From a virus (Duplodnaviria; Caudoviricetes), in the IMG/VR virus record IMGVR_UViG_3300015608_002119, positions 32,001-96,000 of that record: a DNA stretch of 64,000 bases. The stretch is one strand, 5' to 3'. Numbering within the stretch: position 1 is the stretch's first letter; each line of letters begins with the position of its first letter. Below the pieces are notes generated by a model. The model was given only the letters and a program-made list of their open reading frames with translations, was not told where the DNA came from and did no database searches. Both the position numbers and the translations under genes were made by a program. Shown here one piece after another: positions 2,626 to 39,741 of the stretch.

Positions 2626-5600
2626 ATGGCAACAAACACAACGCCCACCGTTGACAACCTGAAGATTGCTCAAGGGTTGGTCCAGGCCATGTCGCAAATG
2701 GCCGACATTCTGGACAAACAGACCGAGTCGCTCAAGACGCAGCTCCAACTGAGCGAAGCCATTAAAAAGGTCCAAGAGCTTACGACGGACGACATCAGAA
2801 ACCGGTCGTTTAACGGCGAAGCACTCAACGAGGCATTGGAAAAGTCGCTCTCCGAATCAGAGTCACTGGCCGAGTCAATGACCAACGTCGGCAAGACCGT
2901 TGAAAAGTCGACTGGACTTGTCAATACGTTCGGTAAGGTCGCCTCAGGCGTGTTTGGTACTGTGGTTGTTACGCTTAGTGAGATGACCAATGGCTTTCGG
3001 GCCGGTTTCAACATATCGAAGAACTTCTTCGGGAACATATGGAGGATGGGGCGCACAGCGGTAGGTGTGCTGGTCGATATTGCCAAGGTCGTCGCTGGCA
3101 TGCCTGGGGCTTTCTTGGAGTTTATGCAGGGCGCTGCTACCGGTGGCGTTGACGCTTATAGAGTCGCCCTGGAGGAGCTAAGAGAGGAGTTCGGTAACCT
3201 AGCCACTGGCACGAGCTTGTCTGTTCGCTCAATGAACGAGTCCATGCGCAACTTCTCTGCCACTGGACTGTCATTTGGTCGCGTGTTCGGCTATGGTCGT
3301 GAAGGTTTGGCCGCGGCGCTCAAGGAGTTCCAGAAGATAGCTACCGAGATGGGACCGATTTTCAATCGGTTCGCGGCAGACTCACGTGGAATGTCACGTG
3401 AAATTGTAGTGCTTGCGAAGGGCGCCAACATAACCGGTGAAGGGTTCCGTGCCATGCAGCTTGCCGCGGATAACGGCGGTGAGAGCATCAGAGTGGCCAT
3501 GAACGGGATGATTCGTGGTTTGGCCATGGCCGAAAGGGAGTTTGGCATCGCTTCCAAGGAGATAGGCAAGGACGTTAACGCCATGCTTAAAGACCTTGGC
3601 TCGTTCGGTGTCATGTCTCGTGACACGATGATCAAAACCAGCGTCTACGCAAGACGTTTGGGCTTATCAATCGAAGCTCTCAAGAAGGTGATGGACAAGT
3701 ACCTCAACTTTGAAGATGCAGCACAGTCCGCTGCTGGTATGGCCGAGGCGTTCAACATGAACATCGACGCCATGAGAATGATGAGGGAGCAAGATCCGAC
3801 GAGACGACTTGACATGCTTCGTCAGGCGTTCTTCCGCACTGGTCGCAACATTGACCAGATGTCCATTGCAGAGCGTCGACACCTTGCAAACCTAAGCGGC
3901 ATGTCCGAAGAGGAAACGAGGATTGCGTTTGCTCAACGCAACAGGGCCTTGTCTGGTGCGCAACTAGACGCTCAGATGCGTCGATCGCAGCGCCAGCAAA
4001 TGACTCAGGTGCAAGCGTTGCAACAGGTAGCAAAATCTATCAAGTTGCTGGTGATGTCTGGCAGCCCGCTGCAAGGCAGCTTCTTCGACATATTCATTCG
4101 TGGTTTCAAACAGGGCATCATGTGGTCGCGTGAGTTCCGCGGAGCAGTCCGCGCCATTCAACAGTCCATGAGGGTGATCTTTATGTCTGGCCGGGAAGTT
4201 GGCCGGATGTTTGCGCACCTGTTCCCTGGATTTAAGGAGTTCTTCGGTGGTGTACGAGACCTGTTCAATCCACGACGGTATCGTGCGCTGATGACGCAGG
4301 TAAAAGCACAGTTCCGGGAGTTCTTCACGTCCTTGTCCGACCCGAACAGACGCGACAGTGCCCTTGGAACTTTCATGCGAAACATGAGAACCAACTTCCT
4401 CAACTACTTCACTCAAGGCTCCCCAGCGGCCAGAAGGACAGCGGAAGGGTTCAAGACGTTCTTCAAGACGATTGGGATCCTTGCAATTCAAGGGGCAAGG
4501 TACTTGCTTGTGCAGCTTAGGGACGGAACAAAGAAGGCCCTTGATGCTGTGAGGGCCGTTCTTCTAAATCCACGTGGGATTAGACAAGGCTTGCGTGAGC
4601 TGTTTGCACCAGGAACAAACGTCGCTGGTACCATGGGCAGCCAGCTCACATCGACGTTCCAGGAAGTGTTCCAATATGCCGCGTCACAACTGGGGCCGGT
4701 TCTAGGGCAGCTGTGGGATACCGTTGTTGGGTTTATATCCGACAGGAGAGTACAGCAAGCACTGGAAGACAAGCTGGGGCCACCTCTCAGAAAGGCCGGT
4801 CAGTTTGTCGGCAAGTATTTCATCGCGGCGATGTTCGGCCCTGCTGTAATCATGGCCGCCGTACGCGGAGCTGGTGCCATGATTGCGACTGCGCTCGGGA
4901 AGGCGCTGTTCCCTGTGGCAAAGAGCACCTTTGCTAGCTTCTCTCTAACATCTACGGCGGTTGCCGCAGTGTTGGCTTCGGTCGTAGCTTTGACGGTTGG
5001 GTTTGACCAGTTCCCAGATAAGACAGCCAAGGCAATGAAGCGAGTCGACGAGGTTGTCGCTAGACTGTCAAACAACATCGGCCTGTACATGGGCAAGGCG
5101 TACAAGGCGATCGTTGATGGTGCAACTGCCGTCGGGTTCTTGGTAGCAGGCTACTTGTTTGATCCGGCCCGCTGGCTGGCTGCGGTCGGTAGGCTTACCG
5201 CTGCCGTTGTCCCGGCCTTGATGTCTATAGGAAGCACTGTTATCACTGGAATTGGCAACCTTGTTGCTGGGTTCTTGGAAGGTGCCGGAATGCAAGAGGC
5301 GGCCAATGACCTACGCGCATCGATCAGGTGGGTGTCTGATGGCGTGCACGAGTTTGTGGGCGACCTTCGTGGCAGCATAACGACAATTCGTACGTCGTGG
5401 GATATTGTACGCGCCGACTTGCTTCGACTTGGTGGATGGTTGAACGATCACAACCCGTTCATGTCCCTCATAAACTCCATGAGGGACGTATGGAACACGG
5501 CCCAGAGGATCTTTGGTCACTCAGTCAACACTGTCGTCGCAGCAGACCTCGCAAAGATTGAACGTCCTGCCCAAAGAGCTCAAGAGACAATTTCGAACGC

Positions 5601-35310: not shown

Positions 35311-36101
35311 GTTACGGAATAGACAGGATTGTTATCAGCACAGACGACTCACATTTCAGGGAGTTTGCGCATATTGTCAGCGTCGCGTGGCGCAAGGTGT
35401 TTCCGGGCGTCAAGCTCACACTTGCGTACGTTACATCAACAGCAGCACATAGGCGTAAGTTTGAGCGCGACTATGATGACGTAATGGTATTCAACCCAAT
35501 CAATGGAGTACCGGATGCCAACATGGCAAAGATAGCACGTCGTTACGCATGCACACGATACGGCAATGAGGTGTGCATGATAGAGGACATTGACACCGCA
35601 CCACTTAACAGGGATTATCACGCCAGGATCGTTTCTCAGCGAGTGCCCGGAACGCTTGGGATGGTTGGCTTGGAAGTATATGCCGGTACTCCTCATAGCG
35701 GCAAGGCACCTTCCAGCTACACGTGTGGCGAGTCGTACGTTTGGGAACGAGCAATCAACCCGAACGGCTTGGAGTTTGAGGATTGGGCGAGATCATTTAT
35801 CGGCAAACGGGTATTCGATCACAAGGAAGATATCTCGGCGCCCGCTTACCAGTTCTCCGACGAGTCACTGATGCGTGCGATTTTGTCGGAGTCCAAGTTC
35901 ACCAACATCACTCACATCAATCGCGACGCCGATCCCAGAACCGACTGGATTGACCGTAGCTGGTGGGATGTTGACGTTGCGAAACTAAAGCGAAACGAAT
36001 ACTACGTCGTCAACTTCATGCGACCGTTGGATCTTAGGAGGGCACATGACGTGCTCGATCACATTGAGAACCACATGACCTTTGAGGACCACCCAGCATG
36101 A
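35307..36101 (+). CDS. putative glycosyltransferase-like protein
   Basis: AKIARRY, CMIEDID..PL (DxD), SDE, IDRS.W. Embedded in the glycan operon. Confidence 0.55.
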   Translation: MSYGIDRIVISTDDSHFREFAHIVSVAWRKVFPGVKLTLAYVTSTAAHRRKFERDYDDVMVFNPINGVPDANMAKIARRYACTRYGNEVCMIEDIDTAPLNRDYHARIVSQRVPGTLGMVGLEVYAGTPHSGKAPSSYTCGESYVWERAINPNGLEFEDWARSFIGKRVFDHKEDISAPAYQFSDESLMRAILSESKFTNITHINRDADPRTDWIDRSWWDVDVAKLKRNEYYVVNFMRPLDLRRAHDVLDHIENHMTFEDHPA

Positions 36102-36661
36102 CAACTGTTGTTACCATACACCAACCCAGCTTCTTACCATGGATGCCATTCTTCGACAAGGTTCGCAGTGCAGACATGTACGTGGTCTTGTCTGAGTGCC
36201 AATACGAGAAGAACGGCTACCAGAACCGGTTCTTTTATCGCGGCAAGTGGCATACACTGAGCGTCAACAAGGGTATGGAACCAATCAAAAACAAGAGGTA
36301 CGTTAATCCGTACAACGACTGGGAAAAGATCAAGCTAAATCTACCAGACAAGGCGCACGTCTTGTCACAGTTTGATGATCTGATAAGTGACAATCTGCTA
36401 TTGACGAACATGGCGGTCATCAAACGTTGTCTCAGACTGCTAAACATCAACACGGCCGTAGTGTTGGATCCGGTGACAGCACTGACCGGCACTGACAGGC
36501 TGGTTGACATATGCCGGTACTATGGCGCCGATGTCTACTTGTCTGGCCCGAGCGGCAAGAGCTACATGGACACCGCACTGTTCGATCGTGCGGGTATTGC
36601 CGTCCGGTACTGTGATAGCTCTGACAGCTCCTCGCCGCACGTGCTCGACGTGCTCGGCTGA
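36098..36661 (+). CDS. WbqC-family protein
   Basis: IHQPSFLPWMPFFDK...D, QNR, TDRLVDIC...GADVYLSGPSGKSY. Confidence 0.9.
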   Translation: MTTVVTIHQPSFLPWMPFFDKVRSADMYVVLSECQYEKNGYQNRFFYRGKWHTLSVNKGMEPIKNKRYVNPYNDWEKIKLNLPDKAHVLSQFDDLISDNLLLTNMAVIKRCLRLLNINTAVVLDPVTALTGTDRLVDICRYYGADVYLSGPSGKSYMDTALFDRAGIAVRYCDSSDSSSPHVLDVLG

Positions 36662-36696
36662 CCGTCTCACAACTCCCCCGCCAAGCCACCCAATAA

Positions 36697-36775
36697 CCCG
36701 TCCTGTGCCCGATCTTTTCCAGGACGGGTTCCTGGCCGTCCGAACCATTTGGACGCCCAGGACGGGCGTATAGGA
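36697..36775 (+). other. tandem GC-rich hairpins ending in the GGCGTATAGG motif
   Basis: CCCGTCCTG...CAGGACGGG and CCTGG.CGTCCGA...TTGGACG.CCAGG inverted repeats after the WbqC stop. Confidence 0.45.
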
Positions 36776-36782
36776 GCTTGCG

Positions 36783-36965
36783 CCAAACCTAAAAATACAA
36801 CAATCATATCCGACGGTACAAGACTGCGGAACCGAGACATTACGCCTGAACGGTTACACTGTTATGGTGGTGTGGGATGACGACCTCAAACACCACAAAG
36901 AGCTCGTAGTACAAAAACTGAAAGAATTTCTCGGAGAAAACAGTGTATCCACAAAAAAAGCATAA
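36783..36965 (+). pseudogene. remnant C-terminus of a Vsr/DUF559-like (homing) endonuclease
   Basis: ETLRLNGYTVMVVWDDDLKHHKELVVQKLKEFL* with no intact N-terminus. An adjacent frame gives KYNNHIRRYKTAE. AT-rich. Confidence 0.6.
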
Positions 36966-38524
36966 GATACTGATGCTCGGTGATCATCCGTTGACGTAAT
37001 AGCGGATACAAAATTGGGTGAATTGCTGGAAAGTCCTTAGAGCTGGTTGGCCACAGCAGAGTTAGAAATGGCATATGCGACGGCTTAAAAACAATCAGAT
37101 TGGATAATCAGCAGCCAAGTCCCTGTTCAGAAATGATGGGAACGGTTCAACGACTACGGTTAGCCTAAAGCCAAATGGCCATGGCGATGATCCGACAGCG
37201 CCCAACACGATATTATCGTGATGATATAGTCTATTCCTGACAGAAATGTCACGGTAGAAAAGTGTGTACTTCTGGTGTCGGAGTGCAAAGCAGATTTCTA
37301 ATTCAAGGGTTAATTGATACTGGAAAATACACATTTAGGTGCCTTGGTGGCGCGGTAAAGCATCCAAACTACGACCCGATCGCCGTCAACCCGGACTTCA
37401 TTATCAAGCCTGTTGATGGGTTCGGCAACCACGAAGTTGTTCGGAACATCCTCGTTAATGAGAGGCCCGACGCCGTGCTCTTGTTCACAGACCCGAGACA
37501 GTTCACGTGGCTTTGGGAAATCGAAGATGAGGTGCATCAGTTCTGCCCTATCACGTACTGGCACGTTTGGGACAACGACCCTTATCCGGAGTTCAATGGC
37601 GTGTGGTACCGGTCAACGGACCTTATCAACTGCCTATCTCACAAGACGTACGAGCTCGTGCAGCCACATTTCCCCGAGAAGACCGGATATGTGCCACATG
37701 CGTTCCCTGAGAATGTTTACTTTCGTATGCCTGCCGCACAAGTCGATGAGCTCAGGCACCTCAACTTCAAGGAGCGGTCAGACTGGTTTGTTGGGTTGTG
37801 GGTTAACCGAAACGCGACCCGCAAGATGCCTAACGACGTTCTGAACGCTTGGAAGAAGTTCCTTGATGATTTGGAGGCCAAGCATGGTCATCGCAAGGCT
37901 ATGCTGATCATGCACACGGACCCCGTTGATTCTGAGGGGCCGAACCTGTTTGCGACGGTTGACATGCTCGGGATCAACGAACACGTGATGTTCTCAAACC
38001 AGAAGGTTGAGTTCCACGACATGAACGCCCTTTACAACTGCGTTGATTTTGTGGTGAACGTCAGCAAGGCAGAAGGGTTCGGTCTCGCCGCCCTCTCTGC
38101 GCTGATGGTTGGCAAGCCTCTCATTGGCCTTAAAACCGGTGGGATGACACGGCAGCTCGTTGACTACAGGGATGGCACGGAGCATGGTGTTGCGATTGAG
38201 CCTGCGGCCAGGACACTGGTTGGCAGCCAGATGGTTCCTTACATCTACGATGACCACGTGAACTATCTTGATGTTGCCGATGCTTATATGAAGCTATACG
38301 AAAGCAACCTGTCTCCGCAATGGCGTGAAGACATTGCTGCGAAGAACATCGCGTACGCACAGCACGAGTTCAACTACGGCAAGATGATCGAAGATTGGGA
38401 TCGTAGCCTCGGCGAAACAATTGACAAATTCAAAAAGCAAAAGGCCACAGGCAAGAGCAAGTGGACATGCGAACCGCTACAGCCTAGCCTTGGCAAGCGT
38501 GTAAATGTTGGAGCAGCTAAGTGA
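36943..38524 (+). CDS. glycosyltransferase family 4, spliced: exon 1 36943-36991, exon 2 37263-38524 (436 aa)
   Basis: GGAG SD plus GTG start. Joined N-terminus MYPQKKHKILMLGDHPL-CTSGVGVQ restores the GT-B first strand and Gly loop. Also NRNATRK and AEGFGLA. Confidence 0.85.
36992..37262 (+). ncRNA. group I self-splicing intron (subgroup IA-like, 271 nt, no ORF)
   Basis: P AATTGCTGGAAA 37021, Q AATCAGCAG 37106, R GTTCAACGACTA 37145, S GATATAGTCT 37223. P1 ATCCGT/GCGGAT with U-G at the splice site; P3 TTGGGTG/CGCCCAA; P8; P9 with GAAA loop; terminal G. Confidence 0.92.
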
Positions 38525-39741
38525 TGAGTAACGGTAAGTCAGTAGTTCTTAGAGGCCCGGCGCTCTCGGTAAGTGGTTATGGCACGCACTGTCGGCAGAT
38601 CGCCAAGTGGCTGTTACGCGATGCCGCTGAGCGTTATGGCCTGGACGTGACAGTTCAGCCGCTGCCATGGGGGACAACGCACTTTCTACTCGACCCAGAC
38701 CTTGAGGATGGCCTTATCGGACAGATTCTACAGGCGTCAGGCAATCAAAAGCCGTTCTATGATGTTAGCGTCCAAGTGCAACTTCCTAACGAATGGGACG
38801 CGTTTCTTGCGGGCTTTAACATCGGTGTTACCGCAGGCGTAGAGACAGAGACGTGCAACCCGGCGTGGATTACTGCGATCAACAACATGGACTTGGTGGT
38901 TGTTCCGTCTGAGTTCACAAAGCAAACCTTCATAAACACCGGAAACGTCAAGACGCCGATCGTTGTTATTCCGGAGTCGTTTCCGGAGGCATACGAGACA
39001 GCTACACCAGATGCGCTTGAAGGGCTAGATCGAGTCGAGACCGCGTTTAACTTCCTGATTGTTGGTCAACTTACCGGCAACGGCGTTGAGAACGACAGGA
39101 AGAACATCCCATACACCATGAAGTGGCTAGCTGAGACCTTCGCTGGTAACAAAGACGTTGGGGTCATCATCAAGACAAACTCTGGCGCCAACACGGAACT
39201 GGATAAGCAACACGTGCGGTCAGTGTTTGCGAAGCTCGTATCGGAGGTGCAGGGGCTTGACACAGGCGCCCGTGGGCCTACGTTCTATCTCTTGCATGGC
39301 CATATGACCGATGCAGAGATGCTCGGCCTTTACAAGCACCCGAAGGTCAAAGCGCTTGTTGCTCTTACGCACGGTGAAGGGTATGGCCTTCCGATCCTTG
39401 AGGCGTCTGCGTGTGGACTGCCGGTGATTGCTACAAACTGGTCCGGCCACCTTGATTTCTTGCGGCATGGCAAGTTCTTGAGCGTTGATAAAACCATCGG
39501 CGAAGTTCATCCGAGCCGTGTTGATGGGCAGATCTTCATGCAAGGCGCCAAGTGGGCATATCCGATCGAACAAGACGCCAAAAGGCGACTCAAGAAGTTC
39601 TACGAGGCTCCCGTGACTCCGGCGCAATGGGCGAAGGACCTCTCCAGGGCCGTGCGGCAGAAGTATTCGTTCGCCACCATATGTGACATCTACAACGACA
39701 AGCTGGGTGTGCACCTAACATCATCATCAGCGCCAACATAA
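38521..39741 (+). CDS. glycosyltransferase family 4 (GT-B)
   Basis: GPALSVSGYGTHCR, VVVPSEF, DRKNI, HGEGYGLPILEASACGLPVIATNWSGHLDFL. Confidence 0.9.
   Translation: MMSNGKSVVLRGPALSVSGYGTHCRQIAKWLLRDAAERYGLDVTVQPLPWGTTHFLLDPDLEDGLIGQILQASGNQKPFYDVSVQVQLPNEWDAFLAGFNIGVTAGVETETCNPAWITAINNMDLVVVPSEFTKQTFINTGNVKTPIVVIPESFPEAYETATPDALEGLDRVETAFNFLIVGQLTGNGVENDRKNIPYTMKWLAETFAGNKDVGVIIKTNSGANTELDKQHVRSVFAKLVSEVQGLDTGARGPTFYLLHGHMTDAEMLGLYKHPKVKALVALTHGEGYGLPILEASACGLPVIATNWSGHLDFLRHGKFLSVDKTIGEVHPSRVDGQIFMQGAKWAYPIEQDAKRRLKKFYEAPVTPAQWAKDLSRAVRQKYSFATICDIYNDKLGVHLTSSSAPT

Follow-up and report, generated by a model that had tools for sequence, protein, structure and literature searches.

A probable 3′ remnant of a Vsr-like homing endonuclease gene beside an ORF-less group I intron in a phage glycosyltransferase gene

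In the 64,000-nt stretch of virus DNA analysed here (the window), positions 36834-36965 very probably represent the 3′ stump of a free-standing homing endonuclease gene, which was formerly partnered with the ORF-less group I intron of the adjoining glycosyltransferase (GT) gene. An earlier note on this DNA had proposed the fossil of such an endonuclease-intron partnership, of the kind called collaborative homing, and the proposal is supported both by the family similarity of the remnant and by the genes that relatives carry at the same site. The window comes from an IMG/VR virus record of 163 kb, whose estimated completeness of 44% suggests a jumbo phage.

The remnant and the gene it overlaps

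The remnant is contained in a stop-to-stop open frame on the + strand (36774-36965; 63 codons and a TAA at 36963-36965), which reads ...ETLRLNGYTVMVVWDDDLKHHKELVVQKLKEFLGENSVSTKKA and has the C-terminal run ...GYTVMVVWDDDLKHHKELVVQKLKEFLGENSVSTKKA in front of its stop codon. Recognisable homology to the endonuclease family is found at 36834-36953 (frame residues 21-60); these residues correspond to the C-terminal ~40 residues of the family and span the last β-strand, with the pattern GYxVxxVW, and the terminal helix of the Vsr-like endonucleases. In all, about the last 40-43 of ~290 codons are recognisable, and the 20 codons before them (36774-36833) are open with no detectable homology to the family. 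When a 48-member family profile (A2) was compared with the complete 163-kb phage record, this region was the sole match (E 5.3e-7, 29.2 bits, profile positions 261-300 of 304), and an HMM built from six complete ORFs found in relatives matched the window frame with an E-value of 4.6e-5 (positions 257-291 of 293). Pfam DUF559 gave 13.3 bits (E 0.076, cut-off 20.6), with its positions 75-108 of 109 aligned so that the end of the profile coincides with the end of the fragment. The remnant is short (~40 residues, 29 bits) and ~30% identical at most to the tail of any relative. With the 63-aa fragment, a short query of low information, a phmmer search of 1.84 billion representatives recovered, apart from the window's own 33-aa ORF, nothing but long, multi-stretch, repeat-like proteins, and searches of the phage's 163-kb record with the fragment, with Pfam DUF559 and with the family profile found no endonuclease paralogues.

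The position of the remnant matches that of the intact genes in relatives in exact synteny, and this, together with the family profile score, confirms that an endonuclease fragment is present here. The earlier note had taken this fragment to be frameshifted, which we could not reproduce: no frameshift was found, and the family profile detected no piece of the endonuclease in the other two frames of 36600-36970, so that the gene is 5′-truncated rather than frameshifted. The positions that correspond to the family's catalytic Asp, Glu and His map upstream of the start of the remnant and are deleted in the window, and in the alignment to the family profile the remnant keeps at most a doubtful equivalent of D251. 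Since it is devoid of D207, E218 and H225, it cannot be an active enzyme, and the window copy is, judged by its sequence, a dead remnant of a Vsr-like family member and not a working one. The first usable start codon in the frame, an ATG at 36864, has no Shine-Dalgarno (SD) sequence, so that the frame probably does not give rise to a separate protein.

As the earlier note had stated, the 3′ end of the fragment overlaps the start of the GT gene and supplies its SD. The GGAG in question (36933-36936, + strand) lies in the Leu-Gly-Glu codons of the remnant's tail, 6 nt before the predicted GTG start at 36943, which itself is 23 nt inside the frame of the remnant; no other start codon precedes the conserved KKHKIL motif. 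This GTG is aligned with the ATG of two relatives (loci L005 and L003); where the window reads ..AAAGAATTTCTCGGAGAAAACAGTG, L005 reads ..AAAGAATTTCTAGGGAAAGAGAATG, and the start codons coincide. Further, the SD falls in the homologous KE(K/F)(I/L) tail codons in L002, L003, L084, L005 and L073. Exon 1 (36943-36991, + strand) comprises 16 codons and one nucleotide (VYPQKKHKILMLGDHP + T). Its last base, U36991, is the U of the U.G pair in P1, and the stop codon of the remnant, ending at 36965, is located 26 nt before the 5′ splice site.

The group I intron itself (36992-37262, + strand; 271 nt) matches Rfam RF00028 with 93.9 bits and ends in a terminal G at 37262; its boundaries were set by comparison with intron-less alleles of the same glycosyltransferase. 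In P1, the intron guide GCGGAU (37002-37007) pairs with AUCCGU of the exon, and the pairing covaries across relatives (CCGU/GCGG, CCAU/GUGG and, in L124, CAAU/GUUG). No + strand ORF of at least 30 aa is present within 36992-37262, in agreement with the earlier description of the intron as ORF-less. Exon 2 (37263-38524, + strand) encodes a GT4-type glycosyltransferase. The ligated exon RNA would be expected to read ..CAUCCGU followed directly by UGUGUACU..., and the predicted spliced product, in which ..KILMLGDHPL continues across the junction into CTSGVGV.., has the same layout as intron-less alleles such as the uninterrupted L011. The intron explains the N-terminally truncated look of the GT. 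For the annotation this means that the GT starts at a predicted GTG inside an apparent pseudogene, and that the 190-nt open frame upstream of the GT should not be called a gene.

On the upstream side, a WbqC-like gene (36098-36661) ends before a GC-rich spacer (36662-36773, + strand; 62-65% GC), which separates it from the remnant and contains two tandem stable hairpins. The spacer marks the upstream edge of a block of lower GC content that holds the remnant, exon 1 and the intron. Over 36775-37370, which includes the first ~100 nt of exon 2, the GC content is 42-47%, compared to 50-58% in the body of the GT and 58-65% just upstream of the remnant, values that fit an import of this block from a lower-GC phage. 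The hairpins (36696-36762) are formed by ACCCGTCCTG...CAGGACGGGT and then by TCCTGGCCGTCC...GGACGCCCAGGA, and the pair has a minimum free energy of -44.5 kcal/mol (z -3.6 against shuffles). They were not called by the terminator scan because no T-run follows them; at the edge of a foreign block, they may be a T-less terminator or an RNA-processing site. A scan of 36400-37400 for promoter and terminator consensus sequences found nothing. Among the relatives compared, WbqC is located beside the GT in the window only, and upstream synteny therefore cannot date the insertion. A blastn search of 36000-38600 against cultured phages matched the intron core alone (in PhiPA3 and in Vibrio and Providencia phages). 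In exon 2 of the window no co-conversion tract was detectable, the identity near the junction being equal for intron-plus and intron-less relatives.

The endonuclease family

The proteins encoded by the intact genes of relatives consist of N-terminal Cys-rich modules, a NUMOD3 motif and a C-terminal Vsr-like domain. The Cys-rich modules are zinc-ribbon-like, with weak zinc-finger and treble-clef hints in the Pfam scan. NUMOD3 was matched in L042 with 25.1 bits (cut-off 20.4) and more weakly in L002; the module is absent from the window. For the C-terminal domain, we obtained consistent sub-threshold matches to MTES_1575, DUF559 and Vsr, those to MTES_1575 scoring 19-30.5 bits (cut-off 38.2). 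In the precomputed Pfam list, PF18741 and PF04480 are assigned to many homologues and PF07460 to some, and the JGI name for the homologues is 'very short patch repair endonuclease'.

A single-sequence search of the PDB with the L055 protein gave no match, and a family profile was needed to detect structural homologues. The 48-member profile A2 matched E. coli Vsr (1ODG, 1VSR, 1CW0) with an E-value of 1.6e-4 over profile positions 211-294, as well as the DUF559-like protein 3HRL (E 0.003) and I-Bth0305I (3R3P, E 0.015). The similarity to Vsr and DUF559 that the earlier note had put forward is therefore present: the remnant fits the C-terminus of a family whose profile matches Vsr, 3HRL and 3R3P. 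The remnant being too short to fold, the fold was checked on the relative L055, whose AlphaFold model has a pLDDT of 91.3. In Foldseek, this model matched 1CW0 and 1VSR with a probability of 1.0 and target TM-scores of 0.57-0.58, 3R3P with a target TM-score of 0.76 (rmsd 3.0) and 3HRL with one of 0.75. The best Foldseek E-values of the L055 model were to Toxoplasma mitoribosomal proteins, with low TM-scores; these proteins may carry RAP/FASTK-type domains, which are themselves Vsr-like (compare PMC11879112).

Residues D207, E218, G221, W224, H225, D251 and W269 are invariant in all 48 family members, and the family's invariant residues align with D51, H69 and D97 of Vsr, the residues that define the EDxHD composite motif (PMC3239194). 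Based on the profile matches, the predicted fold and the invariant residues, the endonuclease family is Vsr-like/EDxHD. In cultured phages, tblastn searches with an intact enzyme yielded only distant matches to the nuclease domain, for example in Aeromonas phages, whose DNA polymerase gene is split by a 'putative VSR endonuclease'.

The site in relatives

Relatives were collected with GT exon 2 as query, which gave 80 loci in a scan of IMG/VR and 80 more in a metagenome scan. In the IMG/VR set, tblastn searches with the fragment matched at the same relative position, ~350 nt before exon 2, in 8 loci, and complete ORFs of 286-307 aa were found at the position of the remnant. Among loci for which upstream DNA is available, 15 distinct ones have the same intron at the same site. 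These include relatives that carry an endonuclease here, as the earlier note had envisaged: eight have an intact gene just upstream of exon 1 (L002 with two tandem copies, L003, L004, L037, L054, L055, L090, L124), in one the gene is frameshifted at an A-run (L073), and two more (L005, L084) have a deletion stump, as does the window. In the remaining three loci (L089, L107, L110), the intron is present and the endonuclease absent. The intact genes of the 8 distinct relatives (~290-360 aa) adjoin the same intron at the same insertion site; they end 8-59 nt inside, or ~20 nt before, the start of GT exon 1, and the distance from the end of the endonuclease gene to the intron insertion site is 26-100 nt.

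The stump of L005 corresponds to a 654-bp deletion relative to L073, and that of L084 to an internal deletion by which an N-terminal Cys motif became fused with the final 36 codons. Among relatives with upstream DNA, L084 (same GT as L017, ~77% GT identity) is the nearest, and its stump is independent of that in the window. The metagenome scan yielded no closer relative with an intact gene, with nothing above 77% GT identity, and L017/L084 are too distant (~77%) for the end points of the window's deletion to be reconstructed from relatives.

The endonuclease is strongly linked to the presence of the intron: a gene or stump occurs in 12 of 15 intron-bearing loci, as against a gene in 1 of 81 distinct intron-less loci, counts to which loci contribute that are not phylogenetically independent. 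None of the 80 distinct intron-less loci having at least 1.2 kb of upstream DNA contains a Vsr-like gene. The sole intron-less locus with the gene, L042, has a flank shorter than 1.2 kb.

Two intron-less loci show features of their own. In L042 (2-535; GT identical to that of L040), the endonuclease lies beside an intron-less GT with unusual synonymous codons in the target region (..CCAAGCGGGGTTGGT..), and these codons might confer self-immunity without the intron. In L118 (449-1186), a 246-aa ORF with repeated NUMOD-like motifs and no Vsr-like domain is located ~1.3 kb upstream of an intron-less GT and may be another kind of homing endonuclease that uses this hot spot.

On the GT tree (a quick search, with supports given as SH-aLRT values), the element has a patchy distribution. 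L037 is nested among the intron-less L028, L034 and L035, L073/L005 are sister to the intron-less L011, and L054 is sister to L053. L037 and L028 differ by a single 1251-nt block, comprising leader, endonuclease, exon 1 copy and intron, between flanks that are 86-91% identical; likewise, L073 has a 1250-nt block in place of 122 nt in L011. Between lineages, the introns are 71-79% identical in nucleotides and the endonucleases 35-43% in amino acids. Both are thus old, so that repeated loss fits the patchiness about as well as repeated gain.

The order of elements in the relatives' cassette is a conserved leader, ACTCC(C/T)ACTCC(A/G)C, followed by the endonuclease, a complete short exon 1 and the intron. 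Of the 10 loci that have a gene or stump, 9 have the GT start within the last 8-59 nt of the endonuclease frame and the SD in codons of its tail. Several loci additionally retain, upstream of the endonuclease, a spare and truncated version of the 5′ end of the resident GT, which ends at -17 (L037/L055), -10 (L090) or about 0 to +6 (L002/L003/L004) relative to the intron insertion site. Such a clustering of three junctions at the insertion site would be the expected, albeit indirect, trace of a break at this place followed by imperfect repair. The intron-only locus L107 (2109-2225) has a mosaic exon 1, in which a native-type SD, ATG and first codons are followed by a cassette-type 3′ half, the 5′ half resembling the upstream copy of other loci and the 3′ half the downstream one. 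It looks like a recombinant between two exon-1 copies from which the endonuclease was cleanly excised, making recombination between the copies one apparent route to endonuclease loss. Upstream of the window's remnant, a search for such a truncated exon 1 ('copy A') gave a best local match with a score equal to that of shuffled sequence; the window has no spare copy, and its endonuclease was lost through a different deletion. The candidate KPKNTTIISDGT, in the third frame of the window, was considered as a spare exon 1 copy and judged to be a chance match (~39% DNA identity).

Further variants of the arrangement were seen in individual loci. L002 has tandem family genes (1977-2717 and 2761-3660) upstream of one intron, as does L083, and the first of the two L002 genes lacks the middle segment (profile positions 86-136). 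In L124 (1138-2223), the endonuclease reading frame stays open across the N-terminal GT codons, in phase with them, as far as the 5′ splice site; its product may be fused or internally initiated. The spare exon 1 copy of L003 (2627-2719) and L002 (1900-1950) retains its own SD, ATG and CATCCATT; the latter could pair with the intron guide with one A.C mismatch. In these loci the spare copy might serve as a second 5′ splice site, and the endonuclease would then formally be encoded by an intron.

Homing, decay and related systems

The arrangement in the relatives suggests how the remnant may have arisen. In a mixed infection, the enzyme would cut an intron-less GT allele at or near the intron insertion site, and repair off the carrier genome would copy the endonuclease, the short exon 1 and the intron as a single block; cut site and specificity in this subfamily are inferred. 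The carrier would be immune since the intron splits the target, and the GT would still be made since the intron splices out. With no empty targets left, the endonuclease gene would be free to decay. In the window, a deletion took away the DNA-binding part together with the catalytic Asp, Glu and His and left an enzymatically dead stump. Its tail probably survived since a deletion of the tail would also have taken the GT start (GGAG 36933-36936, GTG 36943). The intron would have been kept, the GT needing it to be spliced out, and it would still shield the site from intact relatives.

Many free-standing phage endonucleases home on their own account, and the endonuclease and the intron could accordingly be independent residents of the locus, with the endonuclease homing alone to the GT 5′ end or the intergenic region, the intron moving otherwise, and the tight linkage (~50 nt) reflecting hitch-hiking. 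The endonuclease beside the intron-less GT of L042 and the solitary introns of L089, L107 and L110 point in this direction. However, independence is difficult to reconcile with the occurrence of a gene or stump in 12/15 intron-bearing but only 1/81 intron-less loci, with the one block holding both elements by which filled L037 differs from empty L028, and with three different left junctions that all fall within 17 nt of the intron insertion site; L107, moreover, resembles an exon-1-copy recombinant that lost its endonuclease secondarily. We consider independent residence improbable. Still less credible is that ordinary intergenic DNA resembles the family by chance. The weak score of Pfam DUF559 alone (E 0.076) and the outcome of the phmmer search, which besides the own ORF gave only multi-stretch, repeat-like proteins, would be compatible with it, but the family profile score for the genome (E 5.3e-7), the exact synteny and the end-to-end alignment of the C-terminus effectively refute it.

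The fragment could also be more than a relic and still encode a small protein with a function, either of 33 aa (from ATG 36864) or longer (by way of an unusual start), such as a regulator or a leader peptide translationally coupled to the GT. Its frame is indeed open over 63 codons and ends 23 nt inside the GT; yet no SD precedes 36864, neither the catalytic nor the DNA-binding part is left, and the stumps of L005 and L084 differ in length and end points, which makes this very unlikely. Conversely, the stump could be DNA that has merely not been deleted, with no selection on the ~110 nt tail, only its last ~30 nt (SD and start) mattering, and the overlap of the frames an inherited accident. 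Only about the last 30 nt of the tail have an identifiable role, and nothing functional is predicted in 36774-36930, where no promoter-like site was found either. The intron-only alleles manage without the tail, which is thus dispensable where another 5′ end is available, and there are only three stumps, whose deletion end points precede the GT start by 64, about 109 and about 200 nt. Against this, the deletions in the window, L005 and L084, which are independent of each other, all took the 5′ and catalytic parts and left at least the last 22 codons in place, and in most lineages the SD is embedded in conserved codons of the tail. Where a genome has no spare exon copy, a deletion extending into the tail would eliminate the GT start, which fits the idea that the tail is retained because it contains the ribosome-binding site of the GT. 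Given the three stumps and the position of SD and start within the tail, we find retention for this reason plausible, and undeleted DNA a possible but less probable explanation.

A wider reading of the stump, on which we are evenly divided, is that it represents the end stage of a composite cassette, which is undescribed in the literature we searched. This cassette would consist of the leader, a zinc-ribbon/NUMOD3/Vsr-like endonuclease, a replacement exon 1 whose SD and start are embedded in the tail of the endonuclease, and an ORF-less group I intron; the upstream exon copy would serve as the left homology arm and the entire block would home like one intron-borne endonuclease. If this is true, the relatives show each step of the cycle at one site: the empty site, the endonuclease only (L042), the full cassette, the frameshift (L073), the stumps (window, L005, L084) and the intron only, reached through recombination of the two exon copies (L107). 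By analogy with the systems discussed below, the arrangement would work like collaborative homing, which is of a known kind, and the exon-carrying cassette with its full decay series would be the newer aspect, for and against which the chances are about even.

In cyanophage S-PM2, a free-standing endonuclease, F-CphI, is associated with an ORF-less group I intron in psbA (Zeng, Bonocora and Shub 2009, as summarised in PMC6083498 and PMC3984707). As far as these summaries describe it, the F-CphI/psbA system resembles the present one in that a free-standing endonuclease gene adjoins a gene with an ORF-less group I intron, and also in what we propose here, namely a cut at the insertion site of intron-less alleles, protection of the carrier by the intron and joint movement. 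In contrast to F-CphI, which by the same accounts has an Endo VII motif, the nuclease here is Vsr-like/EDxHD. In comparison to the psbA locus as summarised there, the endonuclease gene here is located upstream, overlaps the start of exon 1 and lies 26-100 nt from the insertion site, many relatives hold a spare truncated exon 1, and the enzyme gene of the window is dead.

A second parallel is phage T4, where mobE promotes trans-homing of the defunct I-TevIII nrdB intron (PMC2790892). There, as proposed here, a free-standing endonuclease mobilises a neighbouring intron that is unable to move alone, and in both cases an endonuclease has decayed in a phage. In T4, however, it is the intron-encoded enzyme that decayed while the free-standing one, an HNH endonuclease, is alive, whereas here the free-standing one decayed; and unlike the nrdB intron, the intron described here never shows an ORF.

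With respect to the nuclease, the closest comparison is to I-Bth0305I (3R3P), the prototype of the EDxHD (Vsr-like) homing endonucleases, which cuts next to its intron insertion site (PMC3239194). Free-standing members of the EDxHD group have already been mentioned in the same study (PMC3239194). The present family shares with I-Bth0305I the C-terminal Vsr-like domain, the Asp/His/Asp set, N-terminal NUMOD-type modules and a phage host. I-Bth0305I, however, is encoded within an intron (in P5) and has NUMOD2/HTH, whereas the present family is free-standing, with zinc-ribbon-like modules and NUMOD3, and in sequence it is closer to Vsr (E 1.6e-4) than to 3R3P (E 0.015). Proteins that combine CapR-like repeats with an EDxHD/Vsr-like nuclease have been described as a 'large unrecognized outgroup' of homing endonucleases in phage group I/II introns, a related group with zinc modules (PMC12350094). 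Like these, the present proteins have modular N-terminal DNA-binding repeats followed by a Vsr-like nuclease of ~100 aa and occur in large phages, but they are free-standing instead of intron-encoded. A Pfam scan of the present proteins gave no match to CapR, DUF4379 or DUF723, but only the zinc-finger-like, treble-clef and NUMOD3 hints.

T4 MobA and the bypass insert of gene 60 reportedly form one mobile cassette, as Bonocora et al. are said to have found in 2011. In that case, too, a free-standing endonuclease would travel together with an insertion that does no harm and interrupts the enzyme's own target in the adjacent gene; the protective insert is said to be a translational bypass element there, not a self-splicing intron.

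Collaborative homing has been proposed as the way in which mobile introns arise from ORF-less introns and free-standing endonucleases, and it has very few natural examples (S-PM2 psbA/F-CphI and T4 mobE/nrdB). The locus described here would add a case with a different nuclease family, the Vsr-like/EDxHD endonucleases. Further, its relatives provide a natural series at one insertion site, leading from the empty site through the full cassette and the decayed stump to the intron alone, which makes the cycle of gain, decay and loss of homing elements directly testable.
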